Shown one piece after another: positions 5,744-23,781 of a DNA stretch of 64,000 bases. The DNA is from Candidatus Roizmanbacteria bacterium GW2011_GWC1_37_12 (GTDB taxonomy: Bacteria > Patescibacteriota > Microgenomatia > UBA1406 > GWC2-37-13): positions 46,663 to 110,662 of the forward strand of contig LBST01000006.1 of the NCBI GenBank assembly GCA_000991135.1, in the 5' to 3' direction. A program made the position numbers and the translations under genes. Under the pieces are notes generated by a model, which was not told the DNA's origin, did no database searches, and saw only the letters and a list, made by a program, of their open reading frames with translations. Positions within the stretch are counted from its first letter, which is position 1, and the number at the start of each line of letters is the position of its first letter.

Positions 5744-6570
5744 ACCTCGTCACCCGTAGGGTGACGAAAGCTGAAAAAGTGGCATATCAACTTTTTTAGA
5801 TTGTTAAATTAATCCAAAAACATTATTTTGTAGCGTATAGTCCGTTGACAAAATCTCCTGATACCCATAAGGTGAAATTATGACCCTAAAAAGACTACCT
5901 TTAGCAACCGGTGAGTTTTATCACGTCTATAACAGATCCATTGCTGATGAAAATATTTTTAATAACTTGAAATACTTAAGTAAAATTTTAGAAATCGTTG
6001 ATTATTATCGATTTAATCAAAGAATACGCTTATCAAGATTTTATGATTTATCTGACTCGATACAAGAAGTTTACTTGAAAGAAATTAGACAGAAAAACCC
6101 TTTAATAGATATTTACTCCTTTTCGTTTATGCCAAATCATTTACATTTTCTCTTAAAACAACGAGAAAATGATGGTATTAAAAAATTTCTCAGCAATGTT
6201 GAAAATAGTTATGCTAAATATTTCGATTTGAAATATAATAGAAAAGGATCACTTTTTTTAAATAGCTTTAAATATAAAAGAATAACTAACGAAGAACAAT
6301 TTATCCATGTCTGTAGATATATTCATCTTAATCACGTTACTTCGTATCTTATCGAGTTTGAACAATTAAAAATATATCCTTTTAGTTCATATTCATGGTA
6401 TTTGAACGATAATTTAAATAGATTTGTTAACACTGATTTAATAATGAATCACTTCAAAACTAAAGATAATTTTATTAAGTTTCATCAAAATCAAGTCGAA
6501 TATCAAAGAAAGCTAGAAGAGATTAAAGATTTATTACTCGAGTAGCCTTGTCACCCTATGGGTGACGTGC
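5744..6570 (+). mobile_element. IS200/IS605-like or REPtron-like unit: Y1 transposase-like gene bracketed by short GC hairpins
   Basis: Hairpin TCGTCACCC-GTA-GGGTGACGA (5747-5767), conserved motif TTTGTAGCGTATAGTCCGTTGACAAA (5828-5853), the gene itself, then hairpin GTCACCC-TAT-GGGTGAC (6550-6566). Confidence 0.55.
5880..6545 (+). CDS. Y1 (HUH) transposase-like protein, IS200/RayT family
   Basis: HUH motif MPNHLHFLL and a C-terminal Tyr helix (VCRYIHLNHV), about 220 aa, as in REP-associated tyrosine transposases. Confidence 0.75.
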   Translation: MTLKRLPLATGEFYHVYNRSIADENIFNNLKYLSKILEIVDYYRFNQRIRLSRFYDLSDSIQEVYLKEIRQKNPLIDIYSFSFMPNHLHFLLKQRENDGIKKFLSNVENSYAKYFDLKYNRKGSLFLNSFKYKRITNEEQFIHVCRYIHLNHVTSYLIEFEQLKIYPFSSYSWYLNDNLNRFVNTDLIMNHFKTKDNFIKFHQNQVEYQRKLEEIKDLLLE

Positions 6571-9309: not shown

Positions 9310-10734
9310 ATGGCCAAAAAAACTTTTTATATTACTACCACCGCTCCTTATGTCAATGCTGATCCGCACATCGGTTTTGCTCTAGAAATCATCCAGGCCG
9401 ACGCCATCGCCAGATTTCATAGGCAATTCGGGGACGAGGTAGCTTTTGGTTTTGGAACTGACGAGCACGGCTTGAAAATTTATCGGAAAGCACTTGAGGC
9501 AAAAAAAGACCCGCTTAAATACTGTAGTGAATATGCTAAAAAATTTGACGATTTAAGAAAAGCTCTGAACCTAAGCACAACTCATTTTATTCGAACCACT
9601 GACAAACCACATATCAAAGCTGCTCAAGAATTTTGGAATCGTTGTTTTAAAAATGGAGATATTTACAAAAAAAATTATCGAATCAAGTACTGTGTTGGCT
9701 GCGAACTTGAAAAAACCGACTCTGAACTTTCTGATGGAAAATGCCCGGTTCACCCCAACCTAAAAATAGAAAACTATGAAGAAGAAAACTATTTTTTCCG
9801 ATTTTCCAAATACCAAAAAAAACTTCTAGAACTCTATGAAAAAAATCCTGATTTTGTCTTTCCTAAAAACAGACTTCTAGAGATAAAAACCTTTGTCGAA
9901 AAAGGACTTGAAGATTTTAGCGTTTCTCGATTAAAGAAAAAAATGCCTTGGGGTGTTGACGTCCCTAATGATCCAGAACACGTTATGTATGTCTGGTTCG
10001 ATGCTCTGGTTTTCTATATCTCAAATATTGGCTGGCCAGAAAATGAAAAAGAATTCGATTTATGGTGGCCAGTGATTCAAGTAGCAGGCAAAGACAATTT
10101 GAGACAACAATCAGCTATCTGGCAGGCGATGTTGATGTCAGCTGGATTACCAAATTCAAAACAAATATTTATCCATGGATTTATTACATCTAATGGACAA
10201 AAGATGAGTAAAAGCCTCGGCAATGTCATTAATCCATTCGACTTGGTAAAAAAATATGGGAGTGATACCGTCCGATATTACCTCTTAAAAGAAATTCCCT
10301 CTTTTGACGACGGCGATTTTTCATATCGAAGAATGGATGAGATCTACAACGCCGATCTCGCAAATGAACTAGGAAATTTAGTTTCTCGGTTAACAAATCT
10401 TGGAGAAACAGATAGTTTAACTGTCACCGATAAAACAATTGAACAATATAACAATAAAACGATAAAACAATATAACAATTTCCAATTCAACCTTATTCTC
10501 GAAAACATCTGGAAGCAAATAAAAACTCTTAATAAAACCATTGACGACTTTGCTCCATGGAAAAAAACACCTGAAGACAGAAAAGATTTTTTACTTCAAT
10601 GTTTCAAAACATTAAAATCCATTGCTTGGCAACTAGAACCATTTCTTCCGGAAACCGCCGAAAAAATAATTATAGCGGCAACATCAATAACAAAAATTAA
10701 AAAAATTCCTCCACTTTTTCCCAGATTGAAATGA
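9310..10734 (+). CDS. metG: Methionine--tRNA ligase (short form, no C-terminal tRNA-binding domain)
   Basis: Class I motifs PHIGFA (HIGH) and KMSKSLGN, and a Cys knuckle YCVGCE...CPVH. Contains an in-frame 24-nt tandem duplication. Confidence 0.9.
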   Translation: MAKKTFYITTTAPYVNADPHIGFALEIIQADAIARFHRQFGDEVAFGFGTDEHGLKIYRKALEAKKDPLKYCSEYAKKFDDLRKALNLSTTHFIRTTDKPHIKAAQEFWNRCFKNGDIYKKNYRIKYCVGCELEKTDSELSDGKCPVHPNLKIENYEEENYFFRFSKYQKKLLELYEKNPDFVFPKNRLLEIKTFVEKGLEDFSVSRLKKKMPWGVDVPNDPEHVMYVWFDALVFYISNIGWPENEKEFDLWWPVIQVAGKDNLRQQSAIWQAMLMSAGLPNSKQIFIHGFITSNGQKMSKSLGNVINPFDLVKKYGSDTVRYYLLKEIPSFDDGDFSYRRMDEIYNADLANELGNLVSRLTNLGETDSLTVTDKTIEQYNNKTIKQYNNFQFNLILENIWKQIKTLNKTIDDFAPWKKTPEDRKDFLLQCFKTLKSIAWQLEPFLPETAEKIIIAATSITKIKKIPPLFPRLK

Positions 10735-12941
10735 AAAACATCGATCAAATAAAAGAAATCATTAAAAAAAGAAAACGAAGGATTGCATCTTTAGGATTTT
10801 TGGCAGCTTTTTTCTTTGTCTTTTTTTATATTTTTTTTAATCTCCCTAATCCTTATAAACTAAAAGATTTCCAAGCAACTCCTCTATCGACACAGATATT
10901 TGACAGAAACGGAAAACTTCTCTATGACATTTATAAAGAGCAAAACCGCACTGCGGTAAAACTCAAAGACTTGCCCAAATATATTTCTCAAGCGACGATC
11001 GCCATCGAAGACAAAGATTTTTATAAACACCAAGGCGTTTCTTTGTTGGGCGGAATTTTAAGAGCGGTCAAAGATACCTTTCTAACAACAAAAGTCCAAG
11101 GAGGATCGACAATCACTCAACAACTAATCAAAACGTCTCTTCTTACTCCTGAAAGAACCATTAGGCGAAAAATCAGAGAAATCATTCTCGCTCTCTTTAC
11201 TGAAAAAATATACACCAAGGATGAAATATTGGAAATGTATCTCAATCAAGTTCCTTACGGAGGCGCTGCTTACGGCATCGAACAGGCAAGTATGTTGTAT
11301 TTTGACAAATCAGCCAAAAAGCTTTCGCTCGCAGAAGCAGCCTTTTTGGCCGGACTGCCCCAAGCTCCGTCTTTGTATTCGCCATATTTAAATCCCGAGC
11401 TTTCCCTAAATCGAAAAAATACTGTTTTGAAACAGTTGTATGAAGAAAAATATATTGACAAGAAAACTTATGAAAAGGCGCAAAAGGAAAAATTAGATAT
11501 TAAACCGCCAAAAAATATTATCAAAGCTCCCCACTTTGTTTTTTATGTGAAAAAAATTCTCGAAGAAAAATATGGAAAAGAAACTGTTGAAGAAGGGGGA
11601 CTCAAAGTCACGACCACCCTTGATCTCACTATCCAAGAAGAGGCAGAAAAAATTCTCAAAGAAGAACAAGAGAAAGTAAAGGATTTGGATGTTTCAAATG
11701 GAGCTGTCCTTGTCACCCGGCCGCCTACGGGCGAAATTCTGGCAATGATCGGATCGGTTGATTACTTTGCCGAGGGTAGCGGAGCCTTTAATGTGACAAC
11801 CGCCCTTCGCCAGCCGGGGAGCTCGATCAAGCCGATAAACTATGCTATCGGCCTGGATAGAAAATTGGTGACGCCGGCAACGGTATTCATCGACTCGCCT
11901 ACTTGCTTTACCGGAGGCGGACAACCGCAAGGATACTGTCCAGTCAACTATGACGGCAAGTTTCATGGACCCCAGGCTCTAAGATTTTCCCTCGGAAATT
12001 CCTACAATATTCCCGCGGTTAAGATGCTTGCCGTCAACGGCGTCAAAGAATTTGTTGCTTCTGCCTCAGCCTTTGGAATCACTACTTTTAAAGACTCTAA
12101 AAATTATGGCTTGTCACTGACTCTTGGCGGCGGAGAAGTAAGAATGACCGAGATGGCCCAGGCTTTTTCCGCCTTTGCCAACCGGGGAAAAGTGAAAAAG
12201 CTGATCGAAATTTTGAAAATTGAAGATAAATTGGGAAAAACTTTATATAAATTTGAAAACCCGAATTTTGTCGCTGATGTTAAAAAATCGATGACGGCTC
12301 CAAGTTCGCTTTCCATTACCGGGCAAAAAGCAATCACTCCTGAAACTGCTTTCTTGATTTCCCATATTCTTTTGGACAACAACGCCAGGTCATCTGCTTT
12401 TGGCGAATCGTCCTATCTAAATGTCCGCGGACACGCCGTCTCAGTCAAAACCGGAACCACCGACGACAAACGGGATAACTGGACGATCGGCTACACCCCC
12501 AACTTCCTAACCGCAGTCTGGGTCGGCAACAATGACAATACTCCGATGAATCCATATTTGACATCGGGGGTGACTGGAGCGGCACCGATTTGGAATCGAG
12601 TCATGAGCTATGTTTTAAAAAATCAGTCTGATCTTTGGCCTATCCGACCCGACACTGTTATCGGCCGCCAGGTCTGTTGGGATTCAGGAGATCTGGCAGG
12701 AAAGACAGAAGATGGCAAGGAAAATTGCTCTGCTCGTTTTGAATACTTTATCAAAGACAGCGAGCCTAAAGAATCCCATATTTCTAAACAAACAATCGCC
12801 GTGACGCGCGACGATAAGCTGGCGCCGATTAACTGGCCCGATGTTGAAATGAAAGAAAAAACCATTATCAAGGATATGTTTGGATTTTACTGCGTCGACT
12901 GTTCCCACGAAAACGAACCACCACAAACTATTAGACTATGA
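10731..12941 (+). CDS. Class A penicillin-binding protein (transglycosylase/transpeptidase)
   Basis: GT51 motifs EDKDFYKHQG, GGSTITQQL and RKIREI; transpeptidase motifs SSIK, SYN and KTGTT; N-terminal TM anchor. Confidence 0.9.
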   Translation: MKNIDQIKEIIKKRKRRIASLGFLAAFFFVFFYIFFNLPNPYKLKDFQATPLSTQIFDRNGKLLYDIYKEQNRTAVKLKDLPKYISQATIAIEDKDFYKHQGVSLLGGILRAVKDTFLTTKVQGGSTITQQLIKTSLLTPERTIRRKIREIILALFTEKIYTKDEILEMYLNQVPYGGAAYGIEQASMLYFDKSAKKLSLAEAAFLAGLPQAPSLYSPYLNPELSLNRKNTVLKQLYEEKYIDKKTYEKAQKEKLDIKPPKNIIKAPHFVFYVKKILEEKYGKETVEEGGLKVTTTLDLTIQEEAEKILKEEQEKVKDLDVSNGAVLVTRPPTGEILAMIGSVDYFAEGSGAFNVTTALRQPGSSIKPINYAIGLDRKLVTPATVFIDSPTCFTGGGQPQGYCPVNYDGKFHGPQALRFSLGNSYNIPAVKMLAVNGVKEFVASASAFGITTFKDSKNYGLSLTLGGGEVRMTEMAQAFSAFANRGKVKKLIEILKIEDKLGKTLYKFENPNFVADVKKSMTAPSSLSITGQKAITPETAFLISHILLDNNARSSAFGESSYLNVRGHAVSVKTGTTDDKRDNWTIGYTPNFLTAVWVGNNDNTPMNPYLTSGVTGAAPIWNRVMSYVLKNQSDLWPIRPDTVIGRQVCWDSGDLAGKTEDGKENCSARFEYFIKDSEPKESHISKQTIAVTRDDKLAPINWPDVEMKEKTIIKDMFGFYCVDCSHENEPPQTIRL

Positions 12942-13327
12942 ACTACCCTGATTTTTATAAAAATATTAAAACGATTGCCATCGTAGGTTTATCTGATAAA
13001 TCTGATCGGCCTTCATACAAAGTTTGTAAATATTTAATGGAACACGGCTTTAAGATTATTCCTGTCAATCCTAATATCGAATCAGTCTTTGGTTTAAAAA
13101 GTTTTCAGAATTTAAAAGATATAAAAGAACCTATCGATGTCGTTGATATTTTTCGAAAATCAGAATTTGTCGAACCTATCGTCGATGAAGCAATCAAAAT
13201 CGGTGCTAAGTCAATCTGGATGCAGGAAGGCGTTGTCAATGAAGTCGCCGCCGCCAAAGCCCGTTCTGCCGGATTAACTGTTGTCATGAACATGTGCATG
13301 ATGAAAGAATACAAAAAAATCATTTGA
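12938..13327 (+). CDS. CoA-binding domain protein (YccU/YneT-like)
   Basis: IAIVGLSDKSDRPSYKV...GFKIIPVNP...VDIFR...GAKSIWMQ, a typical CoA_binding_2 pattern. Confidence 0.8.
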   Translation: MNYPDFYKNIKTIAIVGLSDKSDRPSYKVCKYLMEHGFKIIPVNPNIESVFGLKSFQNLKDIKEPIDVVDIFRKSEFVEPIVDEAIKIGAKSIWMQEGVVNEVAAAKARSAGLTVVMNMCMMKEYKKII

Positions 13328-13360
13328 CAATTAAATAATATACTAGTATACTAGTATACA
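13324..13360 (+). promoter_or_regulatory. Promoter (TTGACA-17-TATACT) overlapped by a tandem CTAG palindromic operator
   Basis: TTGACA 13324-29; TATACT 13347-52; TATACTAGTATACTAGTATAC 13339-59 with CTAG centres 8 bp apart. Confidence 0.55.
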
Positions 13361-13363
13361 AAT

Positions 13364-13609
13364 ATGAACAAAGTAGGGGAGCTTATTGAGTCTTTTTTGA
13401 AAAATAAGACAAGCGCTGAAATGCTTGATTTTTTAAAAGGCATTTTAACACCACATGAGTTTGAAAAACTGGTAACAAGATTGCAAATAGTAAAACTATT
13501 AAAAAAAGGCCTCCCCCACCAAGAGATCGCCCGCCGATTAAAAGTTGGTGTGGCCACGGTGACAAGAGGGTCTAGGGAATTAAGAATGGGAAGATTTAAA
13601 AAAATATGA
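13364..13609 (+). CDS. Trp-repressor-fold regulator (YerC/YecD family)
   Basis: 81 aa; LTPHEFEKLVTRLQIVKLLKKGLPHQEIARRLKVGVATVTRGSREL matches the YerC/TrpR helix-turn-helix pattern. Confidence 0.85.
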   Translation: MNKVGELIESFLKNKTSAEMLDFLKGILTPHEFEKLVTRLQIVKLLKKGLPHQEIARRLKVGVATVTRGSRELRMGRFKKI

Positions 13610-13656
13610 AAAACAAAATATTTTCAAATAATTGGTGGATAGATTCCCTCTGGTGA
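13606..13656 (+). CDS. Candidate Trp leader peptide MKNKIFSNNWWIDSLW
   Basis: The ATG overlaps the upstream stop (ATATGA). 3 of 16 codons are TGG, two of them tandem. Alternative hairpins and a terminator follow immediately. Confidence 0.6.
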   Translation: MKNKIFSNNWWIDSLW

Positions 13657-13709
13657 AGCAGATGATTTTTTGGTGGTCAAACCTCTGCTTCAAGCGGAGG
13701 CTTTTTTTA
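13654..13709 (+). terminator. Attenuator: antiterminator (13654-62 with 13684-92) overlapping an intrinsic terminator (13682-88 / 13694-13700 plus T-run)
   Basis: TGAAGCAGA pairs with TCTGCTTCA. CCTCTGC-TTCAA-GCGGAGG is followed by CTTTTTTT. Confidence 0.6.
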
Positions 13710-13724
13710 TTAATAGTTCAAATT

Positions 13725-13800
13725 GTCATTGCGAGCGTCAGCGAAGCAATCTCAAAAATAGATCCCTCGCTTCCCTTCCAGGGTAAACGCTCGGGATGAC
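13725..13800. repeat. Composite palindromic repeat (GTCATTGCG...CGGGATGAC variant of the GTCAT/ATGAC family)
   Basis: Unit 1 is GTCATTGCGAGCGTCAGCGAAGCAATC. Unit 2 is GATCCCTCGCTTCCCTTCCAGGGTAAACGCTCGGGATGAC. It ends 1 nt before the trpB Shine-Dalgarno GGGAGGAG. Confidence 0.8.
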
Positions 13801-13812
13801 GGGAGGAGAAAT

Positions 13813-15120
13813 ATGAAAAACACAAAAATAACATTATCAGATTCGGAAATTCCGGAATATTACCTAAATATTTCTTATTATTTAAGCAAATATCTTAAGA
13901 AACTTCCGGAGCCGCCTTTAAATCCAGGGACCAAAAAGCCTGTCGGCCCAGCGGATTTGTCAGCGATTTTTCCAATGGAACTAATCAAGCAGGAAGTGTC
14001 ACTTGAAGAAAAAATCAGGATTCCCGAAGAAGTCAGGGAGCTATACAAACTTTACCGGCCGACTCCATTGATTCGCGCCTTTAGGCTGGAAAAATTCTTG
14101 GATACACCCGCTCATATCTATTATAAATACGAGGGAGCAGCGCCAACCGGTGCTCATAAACTAAATACCGCGATCGCCCAGGCTTATTACAACAAAAAGG
14201 AAGGCGTAAAAACCCTGGCGACGGAAACCGGAGCCGGCCAGTGGGGTTCGGCTCTTGCCCTGGCTGCCAATTTCTTTGAAATGAAGTTGGTCGTCTTTAT
14301 GGTAAGAGTCAGTTTGGACCAAAAACCTTTCCGAAAAACCGTTATGGAGACGTACGGCGCCGAAGTCTTTGCCAGTCCGTCGGAAAAGACAGAGTTTGGT
14401 AAGAAAATTTTAAAAACCAATCCCGATCATCCGGGCAGTCTAGGTATTGCCATCAGCGAGGCTCTGGAAACTGTCGTAAAAAATAAAGGCTATAAATATT
14501 CTCTCGGCAGCGTCCTGAATCACGTTTTGCTTCATCAAACAGTGGTCGGGCTTGAAGCAAAGAAACAGATGGAAAAAGACGGAGAATATCCGGATGTCAT
14601 CATCGGCTGCGTCGGCGGCGGCAGTAATTTTGCCGGCATTGCTTTTCCTTTTATGACAGATAAATTAAAAGCCAAAAAGAAAGTCCGTTTCATCGGCGTC
14701 GAACCGTCATCTTGTCCGTCTTTAACCAAAGGCAGGTATAAATACGACTTTGGCGATACCGCCCAGATGACGCCGCTTTTAAAAATGCATACTTTGGGAT
14801 CGGACTTTGTCCCTTCACCCATTCATGCCGGAGGATTGCGTTATCACGGCATGGCGCCATTGATTTCGTTTTTATACAACGAAAAACTAATGGAGGCAGT
14901 TGCCTATGAGCAAAATCCTGTTTTTCAAGCCGGAGTCGATTTTGCCCGTACTGAAGGGATCATTCCGGCGCCCGAGTCAAACCATGCTATAAAAGCGACC
15001 ATCGACGAAGCTCTAAAAGCTAAAAAAGAGGGAAAGAAAAAAATAATTCTTTTCAACCTTTCCGGTCACGGCCTTTTAGATCTCAACGGTTATGACAAAT
15101 TTTTACACAAAAAATTATAA
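13813..15120 (+). CDS. trpB: Tryptophan synthase beta chain, TrpB2 type
   Basis: 435 aa with a TrpB2-type N-terminal extension; PLP-lysine motif [10 protein letters not shown]; GGGSNFAG. Strong SD GGGAGGAG. No trpA nearby. Confidence 0.9.
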
Positions 15121-15135
15121 ATCTAAAGTAAAAAA

Positions 15136-16095
15136 ATGGCAGAGAAGAAAAGTGTTACAAAAATGTGGAGCGCTTTAAATCCTTCTATATTTGAAAGGGG
15201 TAGCTTTACTATGTTGTTTAAAAAACTAGAATTACTAAGTGTTGCTCATACAGTTGCTGACTTAGTTATGCCAAATAATGGGGCTATAGAAAATTTATAT
15301 CTAATAGGCTGCGCCACTGCCAATCGAGAAATAAGAGTAATAAAACAAGCTAATCAATCCTTAGTAAATAAAATTTGTATGAAGAATGTTCAAGCAATAG
15401 ACATTGCCCCTCAACTATTAGCTGTTGCTGATAAAAGATTAAGTTTGTTGAAATTATTTGGCTTAGTGAAAAATTACACAACCCAACAACTTTCTGCAGA
15501 ACAAATCAAATTTACAAAAAATAAAATGAATAGCTTAGCTATTTTAGGTATATACGATTTAAATGGTCTTCTAAAAGAAGGATCAGAAAAAAATGACGAG
15601 CCTTTAGGACTTGATGAATATTCAGGTCCAATGAGAGATGTGCTTGGAGAGTTAACTCAAATTTCATCCCTTCAATATTTAAATAGTGAGTTCAAAGAAA
15701 AAGAATTAATAGCAGATTATGATAGTTCTGCTCCTAATCATAATAATAATAAAATAAGAGAAAAACTTAGAAATTATCATAGTAGCAATACTGATATTTG
15801 CGCAATGAGAATAGCAATAAAGCATAAATCTAATCCTGATTCACCTGTTTTTGTCTCAACTTGGTTTAATTTAGTAATGATGAAATCCATCTTTCAAGAA
15901 TTAGGATTAGATTGTCAAATTAATTCATTAGATAGCGATAAAGGGGCTGTTCTTGTTGTCACTAAAAAAGGTTTTCGAAAGGATTATGGAGCATCAAATA
16001 TTGCACTTGCTCTCAATAATGTTTTTGGTAACTTGGCAAACGATCGAATCTTAACTAATTTTGCAAGAAAACTTGTTACATTTTGCAACAACTAA
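15136..16095 (+). CDS. Hypothetical protein, weak class I SAM-methyltransferase-like pattern
   Basis: 319-aa ORF 15 nt after trpB. LYLIGCATANRE and VQAIDIAPQLLAVA loosely resemble MTase motifs I and post-I. Very AT-rich by eye. Confidence 0.45.
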   Translation: MAEKKSVTKMWSALNPSIFERGSFTMLFKKLELLSVAHTVADLVMPNNGAIENLYLIGCATANREIRVIKQANQSLVNKICMKNVQAIDIAPQLLAVADKRLSLLKLFGLVKNYTTQQLSAEQIKFTKNKMNSLAILGIYDLNGLLKEGSEKNDEPLGLDEYSGPMRDVLGELTQISSLQYLNSEFKEKELIADYDSSAPNHNNNKIREKLRNYHSSNTDICAMRIAIKHKSNPDSPVFVSTWFNLVMMKSIFQELGLDCQINSLDSDKGAVLVVTKKGFRKDYGASNIALALNNVFGNLANDRILTNFARKLVTFCNN

Positions 16096-16099
16096 AAAT

Positions 16100-17275
16100 A
16101 TGAAAAAACAAAGAATAATTATTATCGGTGGAGGATCAACTGGATTATCTACAGCTATAAATTTAGCTAAATTTAATGAAAATGAAATAATAGTTTTAGA
16201 AAAATCTTTTGTTGGCTCTGGACAAACAGGTCAATGTTGTGGTTTTGTCAGAACATTTTACAATAAAAAAGAGATGGCTTTTTCCGCTTTTAAAAGTAAT
16301 CAGGAAATTAAAAGAATTTCAAAGCAAAATAATGATATTGAATATATTAAAAAGGGACTTTTAGTTATAAACAGTTTAAAAAATAAAAATCTGTTGATGG
16401 AAAACATCAAAATGTTAAGGTCATTAGGAATTAAGGCAGAATATCTAGAGAATAAACAACTTAATAAAATTAATCCATACATAAAAACTGAAAATAGTTA
16501 CGCCGGATTTGACCCAGAAGCCGGGTATGTGAATTCACGTCTCGTAGTAGATTACTTAAAAAATCAATGCGAAAATTTAGGAGTTAAAATAATTGAAAAT
16601 ACTAAAGTTTTAAATATTAGACTTAAAAAGAAAATTTTTTATATAAGGACTAATAAAGGCGAACTTAAGGCTGCTAAAGTATTTAACGCCACTGCAGCTT
16701 ACTCAAACAAGATCAATTCTTTTTTTGACTTTCAACTTCCTATAAAAATAGTAAAAACCAATAACTGTTTTTATAGACTACCAATGGGCCCACAAAGATT
16801 TACAACTGCGATCGCTGATTTTGTTAACCTTTTCTATATAATTCCCCATAAAGAGTTTATCGATGTAAGTTCACTCACTGTTGATTTAAAAAAACAAGTA
16901 AATCCTGAAGATAAAAACATCTACAGACTTGATGAAAACGCATCTAAGCAATATTTAAATATAATTTCAAAAAGAATAAAAAATGCTGAGAAATCAAGTC
17001 TCTTGGGAGGTTTTGGTTCATGTATAGATATTAGTCCTGATTATTATCCAATATTAGGCAAAATAGATGAAGTTCCAAATTTCTATTGCGCTACCGGCTT
17101 TAGCGGAACTGGCTTTAAACATTTTCCTATGATTGGAATTCTTATGGCAGAAACTATTCTTGAAAAAAAACCAACTTATCCAAACCTAGTATCATATTTT
17201 AATTATAAAAGATTTGAGAAAGAAAAGGAAAAAGAAAGGAAAAAGGTAACCGATAGTTATTTCGTAAAAAAATAA
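16100..17275 (+). CDS. FAD-dependent amine oxidoreductase (DAO family, sarcosine/N-methylamino-acid oxidase-like)
   Basis: Dinucleotide fold RIIIIGGGSTGLSTA...VLEK and a C-terminal ATGFSGTGFKHFPMIG like the GFSGHGFKF motif of MSOX/MTOX-type enzymes. The ATG at 16100 is preferred over the ORF-track start at 16061. Confidence 0.8.
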   Translation: MKKQRIIIIGGGSTGLSTAINLAKFNENEIIVLEKSFVGSGQTGQCCGFVRTFYNKKEMAFSAFKSNQEIKRISKQNNDIEYIKKGLLVINSLKNKNLLMENIKMLRSLGIKAEYLENKQLNKINPYIKTENSYAGFDPEAGYVNSRLVVDYLKNQCENLGVKIIENTKVLNIRLKKKIFYIRTNKGELKAAKVFNATAAYSNKINSFFDFQLPIKIVKTNNCFYRLPMGPQRFTTAIADFVNLFYIIPHKEFIDVSSLTVDLKKQVNPEDKNIYRLDENASKQYLNIISKRIKNAEKSSLLGGFGSCIDISPDYYPILGKIDEVPNFYCATGFSGTGFKHFPMIGILMAETILEKKPTYPNLVSYFNYKRFEKEKEKERKKVTDSYFVKK

Positions 17276-17276
17276 T

Positions 17277-18872
17277 ATGTTAAGCAAATATGAAATAAGT
17301 CGAGGCGGGAGAGTAAAGGCAGCAGGACTTTCTCTGGCAATGTTCACCGATCCTGCTGAGGCATATTTTGGCCATCCAAATGCAATTAATGCTGCAATGA
17401 TGATAGAGACCTTTACAAGGCTTCGCAAATCACCACCAGATGCAATTCGGAATCGTTTTTTTCCTCGCAATCATTCAACTCATGGTATGTTGAAAAATGG
17501 CGCTGCACTATCTCGAACATCAATTACTAATCATCAAGGGATAGGACAATTTTTAGCACATAGCGAAAAAGACGGAACACAAACGGAAACCCAACTGAGA
17601 ATTGATATTGCAGAACAAACTGGTTTTGTAATTCTTGAAGCACATTTAGAACATCAGATAAACAAACTTCAATATCCTTATGGTATGTACTCAAAAATAC
17701 AGGAAGTGAAAGAGTATTTTGCCAGCGGTAATATTCCTGAAGCCCAATTAGCATATGAAAGACTTTTGCTTGCCGGAGAAGAGCTTGGCATCCAAGTTCA
17801 AAGAACGGCAAAAGTGGGACGTGAAGGTTTATTTTTTATTCACCCAAGCATTTCTAGGTTCCCTATTGAGATTGACTCCGCAACTCATGAAAAAATGCAA
17901 CTTAAAGGTAATCAATTAGTTGAAATCATGGTGGAGATAGCTAATCAGAAACAAAAACAATTCGCGTTTGATCATCAATTACCTACACCATTAAATAAAA
18001 TAGATTATCCTCCACTTTATTTTCAAATTGATTTTTTAATCAATAAGGATCGAAGCTTTGCTGTTTCCGATGTTGGCTTGCCAGACGTTGGATTATTTCT
18101 TACCGCTATTGAGAGTGAGGGAAATCAAACGGTTGAGGAAGCAAAACAAACTGTAGCTGGAAGATTGAATAAAGTGTCATTGTCGATATTTAATAAGGCA
18201 ATAGAATACGGTTCAAAAACGATTAGTTTTATCACGAGAAAATCGGTAATAGAAAACCTTGAAGATACTCTAGAAATAAAGGAAATAGAAGTATTACGGG
18301 GTTTGCTTGAAAAAACAGGATTTCAAACAAACATTATCTCTGAAGAACAAGCTCTGGATATGACCCCTGACGATCTTGGCATACTTATGAATGTGGACAC
18401 GTCATCACCTGGTTTTCAAAACCTTCTAAAAAGAAGGCTTGTTGAAGAATCAGTACCCATTCACCCCGACCCTTTTTTATTACTTGCACAAAATGAACTT
18501 ACTGAACTTCCACAAGTTACTGTATCAAAAGAGAGTATTGATTTACTGAGAGGTGTTTTTTCCACAACAGAAAAAACAGATAATATAACAAAATCAGCAG
18601 TTCAACTAGCGGCTGTTGAACGGATTATTAGAAAGTTAGGAATGCCAGATGAATGCGACATTTTTCATATGTACATTCCTGGTCAACCAACTCCCATTCC
18701 ATTTTATCAATTTGACTTAAAAGGATTACAGGTTGCCCTAAACTACGCCGTTGATGCTCCCGAAGTATTACTTAGAGGAATACCTGTCAATCCTGATAAT
18801 GCTGTTCTTTTTGATACTAATGGTAAACCTGTTTATGCAACATTTCGTTATATGTTTAATCAAAAACTATGA
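17277..18872 (+). CDS. Hypothetical 531-aa protein (very tentative ATP-grasp-like ligase features)
   Basis: Long ORF 1 nt after the flavoenzyme gene. LYFQIDFLINKDRSFAVSDVGLPDVG vaguely recalls the ATP-grasp xDFxx..ExNxxPG strand-loop. No firm family. Confidence 0.55.
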   Translation: MLSKYEISRGGRVKAAGLSLAMFTDPAEAYFGHPNAINAAMMIETFTRLRKSPPDAIRNRFFPRNHSTHGMLKNGAALSRTSITNHQGIGQFLAHSEKDGTQTETQLRIDIAEQTGFVILEAHLEHQINKLQYPYGMYSKIQEVKEYFASGNIPEAQLAYERLLLAGEELGIQVQRTAKVGREGLFFIHPSISRFPIEIDSATHEKMQLKGNQLVEIMVEIANQKQKQFAFDHQLPTPLNKIDYPPLYFQIDFLINKDRSFAVSDVGLPDVGLFLTAIESEGNQTVEEAKQTVAGRLNKVSLSIFNKAIEYGSKTISFITRKSVIENLEDTLEIKEIEVLRGLLEKTGFQTNIISEEQALDMTPDDLGILMNVDTSSPGFQNLLKRRLVEESVPIHPDPFLLLAQNELTELPQVTVSKESIDLLRGVFSTTEKTDNITKSAVQLAAVERIIRKLGMPDECDIFHMYIPGQPTPIPFYQFDLKGLQVALNYAVDAPEVLLRGIPVNPDNAVLFDTNGKPVYATFRYMFNQKL

Positions 18873-19258
18873 AATTCTGCACACCAATTAATACGAATAA
18901 TGCGGTGAGGTTTGCCATGAAGTTATTGTTGTCTTCCAAGGAGTCGGTGGACATGACCATGGATATGCAGGGCGAAATAGACCATCCACTGCCGCAAAGG
19001 TATCATCATTTGATAGCACGACTTGTGAAATGTAAGATAACGGTAGCCCGATATATGTACGGAGAAAAAAAATTATTTGAGGAGATTAAGAATCGGTATG
19101 AAGGAGTTCGAGTATATTATGGCGGCAAAATGGACAGGTACCAGCGAATGCTCATTATTGATAAAAAAAAGGGCATGTTTGCGCTGAATGGGAATATATT
19201 TTTCACCACCTTTAAGCCACTTATTAACAGTTTATTTATTTATATTTCAGTTAATTAA
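18869..19258 (+). CDS. Hypothetical 129-aa protein, translationally coupled to the 531-aa ORF
   Basis: ATGA start/stop overlap at 18869-18872. No motif recognised. Confidence 0.45.
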   Translation: MKFCTPINTNNAVRFAMKLLLSSKESVDMTMDMQGEIDHPLPQRYHHLIARLVKCKITVARYMYGEKKLFEEIKNRYEGVRVYYGGKMDRYQRMLIIDKKKGMFALNGNIFFTTFKPLINSLFIYISVN

Positions 19259-19268
19259 TTAACTGAAA
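19245..19268. promoter_or_regulatory. Perfect 24-bp palindrome TTTCAGTTAATTAATTAACTGAAA upstream of trpS
   Basis: Spans the stop codon of the 129-aa ORF and lies 25 nt upstream of the trpS -10 TATAAT (19293-98). AGTTAA/TTAACT half sites resemble TrpR operator half sites. Confidence 0.4.
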
Positions 19269-19305
19269 CAAATAATTTACAAAATATTTAGGTATAATCA
19301 AAACT

Positions 19306-20775
19306 ATGATAGATCAAAAAGTAACAGACTATAGTGAACTGCTTACCAATCTTGGTATAGAAAATAAGGTATTAAGCCATCCTGAATCAAGAAATATTGA
19401 TCAAGTTATCGGTTCTCTTGGCAAAACAAGATCAGATAGTGCTGCAACACTGGTTATGAAAGCTGATGATACATATATCTCCATCATTAGAAGAGACGAC
19501 TGTAAGTTAAATACCAAAAAAGTAAAAAAACTTTTAGGAGTAGATAGTTTAAGGATCGCAACTGATGAAGAATTTATTGAAATCACAGGATTAATTCCTG
19601 GAGCAGCCACGTATTTTAATAAAAATATCACTAAGGTTTTAATTGATAAAAAAGTTTTAGAAAAGGAATTTATAGTTGGCGGCTCGGGAAGTTTTTTATT
19701 TAGTATAAGTCATAAAACATCGGATTTAACAAAAATCCCCGGAAGTCAATTAGTTGATGTTGCTGAAGAAAGTTTAGTAATAACTGATTCAAAATATTTG
19801 GGGAAAAAACGGGTTTTTTCAGGAATCAGGGCAACAGGTAGATTGCATTTAGGTAATTATCTGGGAGCAGTTAAAGGGTTTCTCGAACTTGAAAAAACCT
19901 GCAAATACGAAACTGTTTACTGTGTTGTTGATGTGCACTCAATAACAACCCCATATGATAAAGAAGCGCTTGCCAAAAATAAAAGAGAAATCATCATTGA
20001 TTATTTGGCAGCTGGACTTGATCCAAAAAAAAGTATCATTATCTATCAGTCGGATGTACCGGAACATATTGAGTTGGCATTCTATTTTTCAACAGTTGAA
20101 ACGATTGCGAGGATGATGCATCTGCCAACTTATAAAGAAAAAGTAAAACAGTATCCAAACGCCAATACAATGGCTCTTTTGAACTATCCGATTTTAATGG
20201 CGGCTGATATTTTAATCTATAAAGCTAGCCTTGTCCCAGTTGGCATTGATCAAGAACCACATTTGGAAATCACCCGGGAAATTGCCAGAAAGATGAATCA
20301 ACTTTACGGAACCGATTTTCCTGAGCCTGTCAGGTTTGCTACTAAAGGAGAATATATTCCATCTCTTACTGGCGAGGGAAAAATGAGCAAGACTGTTGCC
20401 GGAAGTTTTATCAATCTAACTGATTCTTTTGATGAAATTAGGAAAAAGATCCGATCAGCTCCGACGGCAACCACATCAGGAGGTGAAATGTCTTCTGGAG
20501 TAAAAACTCTTTTTACTTTTGCCCAATTATTTATCCCAAACGAAGTCGAAGGATTTAAAAAGTCATTTGAGGACAAATCTCTCCAATTTGTCCGACTAAA
20601 AGATGCTATTTCCGAGGCGATTTATAAAGAACTTAAACCATTCCAAGAAAGACGGGCAAAAATCGCCGCTGATCAAAAATATGTTGACGAAGTGATCAAA
20701 GATGGCGCCGAACGCGCCCGCAAAATCGCCAAGGAAACCGTCCGTGAAGTCAAACAAAAGATGGGTTTACTATAG
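19306..20775 (+). CDS. trpS: Tryptophan--tRNA ligase with N-terminal YbaK/ProX-like (aminoacyl-tRNA editing fold) domain
   Basis: Residues about 168-489 are TrpRS (GRLHLGNYLGA, KMSKT). Residues 1 to about 165 match the YbaK/EbsC pattern (LSHPESR...TLVMK...ISIIRRDDCKLNTKKVKKLLG...TGLIPGA...VGGSG). Confidence 0.85.
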   Translation: MIDQKVTDYSELLTNLGIENKVLSHPESRNIDQVIGSLGKTRSDSAATLVMKADDTYISIIRRDDCKLNTKKVKKLLGVDSLRIATDEEFIEITGLIPGAATYFNKNITKVLIDKKVLEKEFIVGGSGSFLFSISHKTSDLTKIPGSQLVDVAEESLVITDSKYLGKKRVFSGIRATGRLHLGNYLGAVKGFLELEKTCKYETVYCVVDVHSITTPYDKEALAKNKREIIIDYLAAGLDPKKSIIIYQSDVPEHIELAFYFSTVETIARMMHLPTYKEKVKQYPNANTMALLNYPILMAADILIYKASLVPVGIDQEPHLEITREIARKMNQLYGTDFPEPVRFATKGEYIPSLTGEGKMSKTVAGSFINLTDSFDEIRKKIRSAPTATTSGGEMSSGVKTLFTFAQLFIPNEVEGFKKSFEDKSLQFVRLKDAISEAIYKELKPFQERRAKIAADQKYVDEVIKDGAERARKIAKETVREVKQKMGLL

Positions 20776-20779
20776 GCGT

Positions 20780-20794
20780 ACACCCTTCGGGTGT
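20780..20794. terminator. GC hairpin ACACCC-TTC-GGGTGT between convergent trpS and HAD genes
   Basis: 6-bp GC-rich stem 5 nt after the trpS stop. Same CACCC-N3-GGGTG type as hairpins at 5747, 6550 and 28856. Confidence 0.4.
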
Positions 20795-20813
20795 CCAGGC
20801 ACGAAATTTTCAT

Positions 20814-21419
20814 TTACAGCAAGAGTTTGGAAAGCTTGAAAACTGATTCTTTTACATTTTTTTCACCAAACCAAAAAGTCTGCCAACCAGATTTCTTTGC
20901 ACCTTCAATAAAATCTTTTCTATCATCAATAAGTAAAATTTCCTCTTCTTTTACACCGACTAAATTTGTTGCTAATTTATATATTTCTCTTTCTGGTTTT
21001 CTGAAACCTACTTCGTAAGAAAGAACAACTACAGAATATTTAATATCTGTAACCATTCCTTTCTCTATAAGTCTTGGCATCATACCTTTATAAAGATTGG
21101 AAATTAACCCTATCTTGTACTTTTTTGAAAGTTGACGGGCAAGTTCATGAACTTCAAGCCGTGGTCGATAATCCCCCATCCAGCTTTCAACAAAGTTATA
21201 ATTATCTGCATTTTTCAAACCAAATTTTTTTATCGCCAATTTCCAAACATCTTGTGGAGAAATTTTTCCTCTTGTAATGTCATCCCATATTTTCCCGCTC
21301 CAAAGCTTATTGAATTCTTCGAAATTGATTTTGAATTTCGAAGTTACCGTCCTAAAAGAATCACTCCAATCATTCATCACTCCACCAATGTCAAAATAAA
21401 TAAATTTAATTTTTTTCAT
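20814..21419 (-). CDS. HAD-superfamily hydrolase
   Basis: Motif I-like YFDIGGV, KIGLISN and LLIDDRKDFIEGAKKSG; 201 aa. Confidence 0.75.
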   Translation of the reverse strand: MKKIKFIYFDIGGVMNDWSDSFRTVTSKFKINFEEFNKLWSGKIWDDITRGKISPQDVWKLAIKKFGLKNADNYNFVESWMGDYRPRLEVHELARQLSKKYKIGLISNLYKGMMPRLIEKGMVTDIKYSVVVLSYEVGFRKPEREIYKLATNLVGVKEEEILLIDDRKDFIEGAKKSGWQTFWFGEKNVKESVFKLSKLLL

Positions 21420-21488
21420 AATTTAAATTATACCTCTTGATTTTCAAAAACAACTATTCTAATATTAAGGTGAACTATTGTTCAATGT

Positions 21489-22088
21489 ATGAAAAAACCT
21501 GTCTTTGCTTTTATAGACGCTTCTAATCTTTTTTATGGCGGAGAGAAAAGCCTGGGATGGAAAATCGATTATCGAAAACTAATTAAATATATCAAAAGAA
21601 AATATCTTGTCAAAAAAGTATTTTATTATGGCGGAGTCGAACTTAACGGATTCCTTTATTCAATTTTAGACAAACAGCCAATTAATCTAAATAAACTAAT
21701 AAGTTACCTAAACGGAAAGAAACCTATTGATAAAAAATCTATTCAACGAATCAAATTCTATTTGAAACTAGCCGAATTCGGTTATTTGCTCAAACTTAAA
21801 CCGGTTAAGATCTTCCGTGAACCAGACGGAAGAATTTCCAAAAAGGCTAACTGTGACGTCGACATGACCTTTGATTTGATGAGATACATAAAAGATTATT
21901 CTGACGTTTTGATTTTATCGGGAGATGGAGATTTTGCCATTGTTTTAAAATATTTGATGCAACTTGGTAAAAAAGTTACAGTGTTAGCTCGAGGTGAAAG
22001 AACAGCAAGAGATATTCGTCAATTAGTCGGTGGAGATTTTCGAGATTTTAGCAGATTGCGAAAAGAAATTGAATTTATAAAAAAATAG
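21489..22088 (+). CDS. NYN/LabA-like domain protein (predicted RNase fold)
   Basis: FIDASNLFYG, CDVDMTFDLM and ILSGDGDF are characteristic acidic motifs of NYN (DUF88) domains. Confidence 0.8.
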   Translation: MKKPVFAFIDASNLFYGGEKSLGWKIDYRKLIKYIKRKYLVKKVFYYGGVELNGFLYSILDKQPINLNKLISYLNGKKPIDKKSIQRIKFYLKLAEFGYLLKLKPVKIFREPDGRISKKANCDVDMTFDLMRYIKDYSDVLILSGDGDFAIVLKYLMQLGKKVTVLARGERTARDIRQLVGGDFRDFSRLRKEIEFIKK

Positions 22089-23493: not shown

Positions 23494-23781
23494 TTATTTT
23501 AATACCTTCTCATATCCACCACATCCTCTAAATAACCAGTGAGCTGTTCGCGTAACCGTAGTTGTTGAGACTCCAAGTTTCTTAGCGATTGCCTTATAAG
23601 ACATTCCTTTTTTAAGGAGTCTCGCCATCTCTAGTCGATTTGCAAATTCTTCAATCTCTTTTATCGTTAAAAGATCTCTTAAAAAATTGGCTACATCCTG
23701 TTCTGTTTTCAATTTTAAGAAGGCACTAGACAGTGCCTTCTCTTTATCATTTTTTGGTTTATAGTTTTGAAAATTAGACAT
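23494..23781 (-). CDS. Trp-repressor-fold regulator (YerC/YecD family), second paralog
   Basis: 95 aa; LLTIKEIEEFANRLEMARLLKKGMSYKAIAKKLGVSTTTVTRTAHWL. TATAAT lies 6 nt upstream of the ATG. Confidence 0.85.
   Translation of the reverse strand: MSNFQNYKPKNDKEKALSSAFLKLKTEQDVANFLRDLLTIKEIEEFANRLEMARLLKKGMSYKAIAKKLGVSTTTVTRTAHWLFRGCGGYEKVLK

Follow-up and report, generated by a model that had tools for sequence, protein, structure and literature searches.

A lysine-less INS-superfamily domain fused to tryptophanyl-tRNA synthetase in Microgenomates suggests proofreading of tryptophan charging

Tryptophanyl-tRNA synthetase (TrpRS) is a textbook case of an enzyme that can do without editing, and it is missing from the lists of aminoacyl-tRNA synthetases with editing domains. 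Members of the INS superfamily, such as YbaK and ProX, are described in reviews as single-domain proteins, the INS region of prolyl-tRNA synthetase (ProRS) excepted (PMC11295145). All characterised members use a particular lysine and a GXXXP loop, and for the ProXp-ala domain appended to protist ProRS deacylation of Ala-tRNA-Pro has been demonstrated (PMC11286415). The eukaryotic member ProXp-7 (MCP3) retains the lysine. An AlaX-like domain, related to another editing family, is found on the TrpRS of Plasmodium falciparum; the published descriptions confine it to alveolates and regard it as an aid to tRNA binding (PMC3240968, PMC3680381). Here we describe a gene of Candidatus Roizmanbacteria bacterium GW2011_GWC1_37_12, a member of the Microgenomates within the Candidate Phyla Radiation (CPR), in which an INS-fold domain lacking the canonical lysine is fused to the N-terminus of a bacterial-type TrpRS at the end of an operon with apparent tryptophan control. 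The gene lies in a stretch of 64,000 nucleotides (contig LBST01000006.1, positions 46,663 to 110,662 of the forward strand), referred to as the window.

The fusion gene (19306-20775, forward strand) is a single uninterrupted reading frame from an ATG to the stop codon at 20773-20775 and encodes 489 amino acids (aa). Pfam profile PF04073 (tRNA_edit) matches residues 25-143 over positions 1-122 of its 123 with an E-value of 1.5e-16 and 61.0 bits, the gathering score being 25.5 bits; with residues 1-170 only, the match reaches 1.2e-17 and 64.6 bits. PF00579 matches residues 168-416 (E-value 1.8e-54) and the NCBIfam model for trpS, TIGR00233, aligns from end to end (positions 2-328 of 328) with residues 167-488 at 274.4 bits (cut-off 176.75). 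From Pfam, profile alignment and the AlphaFold2 model with its Foldseek matches, the N-terminal INS/YbaK-fold domain was assigned to residues 1-156 (19306..19773). A variable, flexible linker comprises residues 157-166 (19774..19803), and the catalytic and anticodon-binding body of a bacterial-type TrpRS, delimited by TIGR00233 and Foldseek, comprises residues 167-489 (19804..20775). Reading of the sequence locates the class I motifs HLGN (HIGH-type; residues 181-184, 19846-19857) and KMSKT (KMSKS-type; residues 359-363, 20380-20394), both of which are invariant in 35 fusions. The residues of the tryptophan pocket are present (F171, H211, M298, D301, I302, V310, V312) and all except F171 are invariant; we take them to correspond to F5, H43, M129, D132, I133, V141 and V143 of Bacillus stearothermophilus TrpRS. 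Because the body with its invariant pocket is canonical, it points to a charging enzyme rather than a relic, and by its sequence the gene product is a working bacterial-type TrpRS. The public gene call for this protein (P0027, 470 aa) starts 19 codons downstream of the ATG at 19306. This ATG is the likely start, since residues 1-19 are conserved (Y9 in 120 of 121 fusions).

The AlphaFold2 model of residues 1-165 has a mean predicted local distance difference test (pLDDT) value of 93.2. A Foldseek search of the Protein Data Bank (PDB) with the N-terminal domain returned INS-fold proteins, or designs based on the INS fold, as all of its top 37 matches. The leading ones are APE2540 (1wdv; template modelling (TM) scores 0.80/0.88), Thermus thermophilus ProX (2cx5/2z0k; 0.82/0.86 for 2cx5) and Haemophilus influenzae YbaK (1dbu; 0.79/0.85), all with E-values of 1e-11 to 1e-10, and other ProX and ProRS-INS entries are also among them. 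In the full-length model (pLDDT 87.6, predicted TM score (pTM) 0.63) two well-folded bodies are joined by residues 157-165, whose pLDDT is below 50, as is that of the linker in both models; in view of the pTM the mutual orientation of the two bodies is left undefined. The TrpRS body matches the TrpRS of Escherichia coli and of B. stearothermophilus with target-normalised TM scores of 0.87-0.91, and Foldseek found no PDB chain spanning both the N-terminal domain and TrpRS. The preliminary description of this DNA, made from the sequence alone, had proposed an N-terminal domain of YbaK/ProX fold joined in frame to a complete class I TrpRS. Profile scores, model and motifs agree with it on both points.

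A survey of TrpRS sequences for the N-terminal domain, proposed in the same description, found the fusion to be common in Microgenomates. With the full-length protein as query more than 7000 TrpRS relatives were returned; the best 120 clusters among them, 60-96% identical and 466-512 aa long, all carry PF00579 and PF04073, and their named members are annotated as 'tryptophan--tRNA ligase' of Candidatus Roizmanbacteria or Patescibacteria. Scans were made of the species genomes of GTDB, with patterns specific for the window's type of TrpRS, and of metagenomes of JGI. The intact fusion was found at 62 loci, the window counted, an unfused orthologue of 324-330 aa at 52 and a stand-alone domain gene at 15. 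Fusions of a YbaK-like domain with TrpRS were seen in Roizmanbacteria, Amesbacteria, Woesebacteria and Dojkabacteria, and the fusion is conserved in Roizmanbacteria and other Microgenomates. In pairwise comparisons of 121 fused sequences the mean identity of the TrpRS parts is 0.76, that of the N-terminal domains 0.52 and that of the linkers, which vary in length, 0.20. This pattern is what two selected domains on a free tether would show; with about 18 near-invariant residues across the 121 fusions the N-terminal domain is under purifying selection, and the linker beside it drifts freely.

Could a ybaK-like gene and trpS have been joined, in this genome alone, by a sequencing or assembly error or by loss of a stop codon? 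An initial homology search with the N-terminal domain only had given nothing but stand-alone proteins, and in one relative (L029) the two parts lie in different frames. The first result reflects the word index to which that search was restricted, and a fusion unique to this genome was rejected once the full-length query returned at least 120 fused clusters. In L029 the frames differ through a deletion within the domain and not through an ancestral two-gene state. Samples and assemblers that are independent of one another yielded the same intact reading frame, in at least 120 protein clusters and at 62 loci, and the chance of a join artefact is therefore negligible. A frameshift or assembly join at about 19800, which the preliminary description had named as a possible refutation, was likewise rejected: the reading frame on the forward strand continues through this region with neither a stop nor a change of frame, and the architecture recurs in the 62 loci. 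The L029 sequence itself (10001-11357) is a second locus of Roizmanbacteria GW2011_GWA2_35_19, in which a deletion or frameshift of about 113 nucleotides (nt) cuts the N-terminal domain after GGTG and leaves the TrpRS part intact. The same metagenome-assembled genome (MAG) also holds an intact fusion (L011), and L029 represents either strain heterogeneity or decay of the domain. As an aside, many third-party-annotation MAG records in GTDB are titled 'uncultured Gammaproteobacteria/Pseudomonadales' (L008, L015-L017, L019, L023 and others). Their contigs are clearly those of Patescibacteria, and the titles appear to be mislabelled, given a Roizmanbacteria-type operon and proteins 60-78% identical.

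The N-terminal domain is an atypical member of its superfamily. In profile alignments to 1wdv, 5znj, 3op6 and H. influenzae YbaK the column of the strictly conserved substrate-anchoring lysine (K46 of H. influenzae YbaK in alignment numbering, K279 of E. coli ProRS) is occupied by Ala47 in the window (codon 19444-19446, forward strand), exactly the replacement of KTL by ATL noted earlier from the sequence. Among the 121 fusions this position is alanine in 94, serine in 23, valine in two and lysine in none; stand-alone and distantly related fused members have proline, serine or glycine. At position 103, the last of the GXXXP loop, the family has valine, phenylalanine or isoleucine, and the glycine of the loop is kept in 120 of 121. 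Near-invariant in the 121 fusions are Y9, H25, T48, K52, R62, R63, K71, K72, K75, E89, F90, G99, A101, D114, G126, G128, S129 and D140, and a G-G-S-G-S loop falls in the columns of the glycine-rich loop at the active site of YbaK (SGGKRG) and of APE2540. An RRDD signature at residues 62-65 is the clade's own. Scores against the YbaK/EbsC model TIGR00011 (28.6-31.9 bits, cut-off 153.25) and against NF007951 (13.2 bits, cut-off 243) are far too low for membership, which was rejected. By fold and profile the domain belongs to the superfamily, but since it misses the equivalog cut-offs and lacks two mechanistic hallmarks it is not a YbaK. Of the YbaK/EbsC pattern read in the preliminary description, then, fold and superfamily stand and orthology falls; the domain belongs to a distinct INS clade linked to tryptophan operons. 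The stand-alone homologues have 103-159 aa and end near residue 156 of the window protein. We also considered that the function of the missing lysine had migrated across the hairpin of strands 45-53 and 56-63 to Arg62. This was discarded, because outside the RRDD subgroup Arg62 is not conserved and a hydrophobic residue takes its place in most stand-alone members; substitution by Arg62 is retained as speculation only.

Further architectures emerged when 1.84 billion cluster representatives were searched exhaustively with HMMER and the matches scanned with Pfam. Distant fusions of a YbaK-like domain with TrpRS show 30-38% identity (P0156, P0162, P0184, P0185, P0191, P0196, P0197, P0222), P0196 being from Dojkabacteria, and P0255 combines two tRNA_edit domains with TrpRS. 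Three proteins (P0149, P0151, P0152) have a B3_4 domain (PF03483) at the same N-terminal place, above the gathering threshold in P0149 and P0152, and P0198 (744 aa) consists of B3_4, tRNA_edit and TrpRS. In searches of the PDB the first domain of P0198 matches residues 242-335 of the beta subunit of phenylalanyl-tRNA synthetase (PheRS) and the canavanyl-tRNA deacylase CtdA, and its second domain matches the ProRS INS region. B3_4 is a second editing fold, unrelated to the first, that is used in the same way on TrpRS. When the TrpRS bodies were compared alone, the YbaK-fused proteins formed at least three groups, and each of these had some unfused TrpRSs closer to it than the remaining fused groups. 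The fusion therefore arose repeatedly, or it is old and has often been lost.

The fusion gene comes last in a block of genes that all run in the same direction, in line with the earlier reading that it closes an operon behind a tryptophan attenuator; to this attenuator the present analysis adds a TrpR-type repressor and its operator. All elements lie on the forward strand. A promoter-like sequence TTGACA-17-TATACT (13324-13352) agrees at 11 of 12 positions and is the best in 13250-21500. Over its -10 element lies a TrpR-type operator, TATACTAGTATACTAGTATA (13339-13358), whose two CTAG cores are spaced by 8 bp like those of the trp operators in E. coli. In 26 of 47 related loci CTAG-N4-CTAG is present no more than 40 nt ahead of the trpR-like gene, the expectation being 0.0023 per 120 nt. 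The trpR-like gene itself (13364..13609; 81 aa) belongs to the Trp repressor/YerC family by virtue of PF01371 (Trp_repressor) in homologues of related loci, and tblastn places such a gene upstream of the operon in most fused loci. A putative leader peptide, MKNKIFSNNWWIDSLW (13606..13656), read from the sequence, begins at the trpR stop codon and contains tandem tryptophan codons and a third one; about 20 related loci have an M..NNWW..LW peptide after trpR. In the attenuator RNA (13655..13710) an antiterminator competes with a terminator hairpin and its U-run. The antiterminator pairing GAAGCAGA/UCUGCUUC (13655-13691) is the minimum-free-energy fold of 13655-13712, and the terminator hairpin CCUCUGCUUCAAGCGGAGG (13682-13700) with its U-run is the strongest terminator-like site of the region; the two folds have -17.1 and -13.8 kcal/mol with z between -2.5 and -3.7. 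By these predicted features it is a classical-looking trp-type leader-peptide attenuator in a CPR bacterium. The alternative of a WW peptide serving as precursor of a ribosomally synthesised and post-translationally modified peptide, or of the PEARL type, was dismissed in view of the missing LanB-like enzyme, the terminator and antiterminator directly downstream and the context of TrpR and TrpB2.

Downstream of the attenuator follow TrpB2, a TrpB-like pyridoxal phosphate (PLP) enzyme of 435 aa (13813..15120; NF009057 705.5 bits, cut-off 366; TIGR01415 655 bits), a 319-aa ORF without a Pfam or NCBIfam match (15136..16095) and a flavin adenine dinucleotide (FAD) amine oxidase of the sarcosine/N-methyl-tryptophan oxidase type with 404 aa (16061..17275; PF01266 DAO, 2.1e-45). 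The soxB, soxA_mon and N-methyl-L-tryptophan oxidase models match this oxidase, all below their cut-offs. Next comes a protein of 531 aa (17277..18872) from a CPR-only family with 40 homologues, all hypothetical; it shares 100% of its residues with US40_C0002G0055 from Candidatus Roizmanbacteria bacterium GW2011_GWC2_37_* and has no Pfam, NCBIfam or PDB match. Its partner of 129 aa (18869..19258), likewise from a CPR-only family, co-occurs with it in four relatives (L014, L018, L023, L068). In these the 531-aa gene is directly upstream of TrpRS, and in L136 it is upstream of a B3_4-TrpRS. Pfam, NCBIfam, PDB sequence and homologue searches returned nothing that would identify the 531-, 129- and 319-aa proteins; from these neighbourhoods the 531- and 129-aa pair looks like a CPR module linked to TrpRS, whether fused, unfused or fused to B3_4. 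A perfect 24-nt palindrome, TTTCAGTTAATTAATTAACTGAAA (19245-19268), lies across the stop codon of the 129-aa ORF and 38 nt ahead of the fusion ATG and may be an operator or a hairpin. Beyond the operon, a second, divergent TrpR-like paralogue (about 23524-23748, reverse strand) is 40% identical to the first, and such a paralogue is also found downstream of the operon in L002, L010, L011, L013, L015, L016, L020 and L023. Elsewhere in the window an ORF at 5880-6545 has an IS200-like Y1 transposase domain (PF01797, 3.9e-07); it adjoins the gene for PNPase, and the gene for MetRS follows about 2.7 kb downstream.

The link to tryptophan extends to the relatives. Upstream sequence of 2.5 kb or more is available for 43 fused loci. 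In this set TrpB2 is near the fused TrpRS in 25, TrpR in 24, an amino-acid racemase in eight, an EamA transporter in five, an archaeal-type TrpRS in four and D-aminoacyl-tRNA deacylase (DTD) in three. In five sister genomes (L030, L031, L041, L061, L083) the slot after TrpR, leader and TrpB2 holds an unfused TrpRS of 324 aa, and owing to this shared slot the fused gene looks orthologous to the housekeeping TrpRS. Stand-alone domain genes of about 150 aa lie beside TrpR, TrpB2 or an archaeal-type TrpRS at six of 15 loci (L001, L004, L096, L101, L111, L133). L001 has TrpR, a 73-aa ORF, a 332-aa ORF, archaeal-type TrpRS, EamA, the YbaK-like gene and a PLP enzyme; in L101 TrpR is directly upstream of the domain gene; L111 combines it with TrpR, a 332-aa ORF and archaeal-type TrpRS, and L004 with a racemase and TrpR. 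These free homologues associate the domain with the biology of tryptophan and tRNA-Trp and not with one particular polypeptide. A second TrpRS, of archaeal type, adjoins the fused one in L026, L055, L110, L124 and L128, and a divergent bacterial-type TrpRS adjoins the B3_4-TrpRS of L136. With a second TrpRS next door in several relatives, the fused form may be a starvation-induced isoform in some lineages. The archaeal-type enzyme has about 386 aa, scores 227 bits with TIGR00233, is preceded by the gene for a 332-aa protein and occurs next to the fused TrpRS in the five loci just named or next to a stand-alone YbaK-like gene (L001, L111). In L002 (9584-9979) and also in L019, an ORF of 131 aa that lies next to TrpB2 and separates the racemase from the fusion matches the N-terminal part of SerK/SbnI, which are O-phospho-L-serine-forming enzymes; this match hints at an O-phosphoserine-dependent TrpB2 reaction.

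We propose that the N-terminal domain serves as a tethered module for the post-transfer editing of tRNA-Trp and that its mechanism is non-canonical; we consider the chances of this proposal evenly balanced. TrpRS would esterify A76 of tRNA-Trp, the 3' end of the tRNA would swing from the synthetic site to the pocket of the appended domain, and there any ester of an amino acid other than L-Trp would be hydrolysed, either in cis or between the subunits of the dimer. Because the operon appears to be repressed by TrpR and attenuated through a WW leader, the editing-equipped TrpRS would be made together with the indole-salvage enzyme TrpB2 when tryptophan is scarce and its competitors are relatively abundant. 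Candidate substrates would be, in order of preference, tryptophan analogues made by a promiscuous TrpB2 from substituted indoles, then tyrosine or phenylalanine by analogy with B3/4 in PheRS, and then D-Trp. Since the clade is without the canonical lysine, anchoring of the substrate or catalysis would have to differ from that of the characterised INS enzymes.

Several observations favour editing. Two distinct deacylase folds, INS and B3_4, were recruited independently and at times in one protein; free homologues persist in tryptophan operons; about 18 residues of the domain are near-invariant and many of them are polar; distant fusions retain GXXXP (e.g. G-M-V-S-P); and only about 15 residues separate the linker from HLGN and the start of the synthetic site. 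Other observations weigh against it. To our knowledge no substrate is misactivated by TrpRS and no misacylation problem exists, and nothing in the tryptophan pocket looks relaxed. The canonical lysine is absent from all fused, stand-alone and distant members examined, and GXXXP has in addition lost its proline in proteins of the Roizmanbacteria type (G99-A-A-T-Y103 in the window). At one locus, L029, the domain appears to be decaying beside an intact TrpRS part. P0147, which among unfused proteins comes closest to the TrpRS body of the window protein (62% identical), has a C-terminal tRNA_bind domain, which hints that the selected trait may be extra affinity for tRNA. Finally, the AlaX-like appendage of P. 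falciparum TrpRS was judged to be a tRNA-binding module and not an editor (PMC3680381).

These points lead to the main competitor, namely that the domain is a non-catalytic module which binds the acceptor end of tRNA-Trp or of Trp-tRNA-Trp and thereby raises affinity or protects or hands off the product. The preliminary description had already cautioned that the domain could bind a ligand or tRNA instead of editing. In favour of such a module, the lysine is lost throughout the clade and GXXXP is degenerate in the window type, the Plasmodium TrpRS offers a precedent, the basic residues K52, R62, R63, K71, K72 and K75 are conserved, and with the tRNA_bind domain of P0147, from the same TrpRS clade, three different tRNA-contacting folds are found appended. 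However, unattached homologues in tryptophan operons fit an autonomous enzyme better than an affinity tag, the conserved histidine, aspartate, serine and Gly-x-Gly-Ser loop resemble an active site, and the folds recruited, sometimes jointly, are two hydrolase folds and not generic RNA-binding ones. We regard tRNA handling as unlikely, though still a serious contender. A special case of editing, in which the domain would remove D-Trp from tRNA-Trp, is improbable in our view. It draws on the amino-acid racemase (TIGR00035, 146 bits) in the operons of L002, L011, L012, L029, L120, L121, L125 and L134, on the FAD amine oxidase in the window operon and on dtd directly upstream of unfused trpS in several Microgenomates; furthermore D-Trp-tRNA-Trp is a substrate of E. 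coli DTD, and mutants in dtd show sensitivity to D-Trp (PMC1807948). But DTD (PF02580) shares the neighbourhood with the fusion in L002, L016 and L023, so the job is already covered, which weakens the candidacy of D-Trp, and no INS-superfamily member is known to discriminate chirality. The related idea that the domain replaces a missing DTD was abandoned for the same reason, DTD being found beside fused operons. As to gene order, dtd is directly upstream of unfused trpS in L052, L053, L072, L076, L077 and L086, and upstream of trpR in the fused operons of L002, L016 and L023.

Two further explanations detach the domain from the editing of tRNA-Trp. TrpRS might be the mere carrier of a trans-editing domain of the ProXp-ala/YbaK kind that acts on another tRNA, for instance by clearing Ala- or Cys-tRNA-Pro. 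The characterised relatives all have tRNA-Pro or Ser/Thr-tRNAs as substrates, and the ProRS INS region is among the best similarities found in the PDB and NCBIfam; yet the clade is consistently linked to tryptophan-regulated operons in fused and free form, it is fused to three TrpRS lineages with no other synthetase partner among the matches examined, and its scores are far beneath the cut-offs of the YbaK and ProRS families. We therefore consider trans-editing quite improbable. Alternatively, the pocket might bind free tryptophan, an analogue or a nucleotide and regulate TrpRS allosterically. Foldseek matches do include the YbaK-like folds SadB (9qzk) and Maqu_0641 (3mem), which serve in signalling, and loss of the catalytic lysine would suit a sensor. 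Such a device would be without precedent among synthetases, a flexible, unconserved linker and the low inter-domain confidence (pTM 0.63) disfavour tight coupling, and in sister proteins B3_4 takes the place of the domain; a sensor is very improbable.

On the preferred reading of a tethered editing module, tryptophan charging is suggested to be proofread in these organisms. The broadest form of this view, which we put forward tentatively and with more doubt than confidence, is that Microgenomates would possess the first proofreading dedicated to tRNA-Trp, by way of a lysine-less, Trp-operon-linked INS-fold clade repeatedly fused to TrpRS, alone or with B3/4, and would thereby clear tryptophan analogues or other near-cognates when auxotrophs rebuild tryptophan from scavenged indoles under starvation. 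Fidelity in the decoding of tryptophan may then be a problem for some organisms at least, and this branch of the INS superfamily would, if active, work without the lysine considered universal. The natural TrpRS scaffold is of interest for genetic-code expansion with tryptophan analogues, and control of the E. coli style by TrpR and attenuation is documented, at the level of sequence, in the CPR. The protein has been public in databases since 2015 under the annotation 'tryptophan--tRNA ligase', and a full-text literature search found no paper that reports an INS-type or B3/4-type domain on a TrpRS of bacteria; a fusion so common in Microgenomates is thus unreported rather than unseen. The preliminary description knew of no editing domain on any TrpRS; the AlaX-like appendage of the Plasmodium enzyme is a partial precedent. 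The kinds of parts are known; what is new is their combination, the link to tryptophan and the lysine-less clade.

With YbaK and ProX the window domain shares the fold (TM 0.8-0.88), the PF04073 match, a size of about 150 aa, the glycine-rich loop and the glycine of GXXXP. It differs from them in Ala47 instead of the lysine, in the lost proline of GXXXP, in its own RRDD motif and in scores far below the equivalog cut-offs; it is tied genomically to tryptophan genes rather than to ProRS, and it is fused to a class I synthetase. In protist ProRS (Plasmodium, Trypanosoma) an INS domain is likewise attached N-terminally through a disordered linker, and it acts on the tRNA of its own synthetase, as is proposed for the window domain. 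There, however, ProXp-ala has both lysine and GXXXP and is joined to a class II ProRS, whereas the partner in the window is TrpRS. The cytosolic TrpRS of P. falciparum, the only described TrpRS with an appendage from an editing family, resembles the window protein in an N-terminal, linker-joined domain of doubtful catalytic competence; its appendage has the AlaX and not the YbaK fold, and its TrpRS is of the eukaryotic type. The B3/4 domain of PheRS-beta and the stand-alone canavanyl-tRNA-Arg deacylase CtdA have their counterpart in the B3_4 domain at the same N-terminal place in P0149, P0152 and P0198, which suggests the same functional need in these sister TrpRSs. The fold is absent from the window protein, and in the sister B3_4 domains His265 of the E. 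coli beta subunit is replaced by glycine, as in CtdA-like proteins. The trp operon of E. coli, lastly, shares with the window a CTAG-N4-CTAG operator over the promoter, a tandem-tryptophan leader peptide and mutually exclusive hairpins. Unlike it, the window operon is a CPR operon for salvage and charging, from trpB2 to trpS, in which trpR is the first gene and the leader begins at the trpR stop codon.

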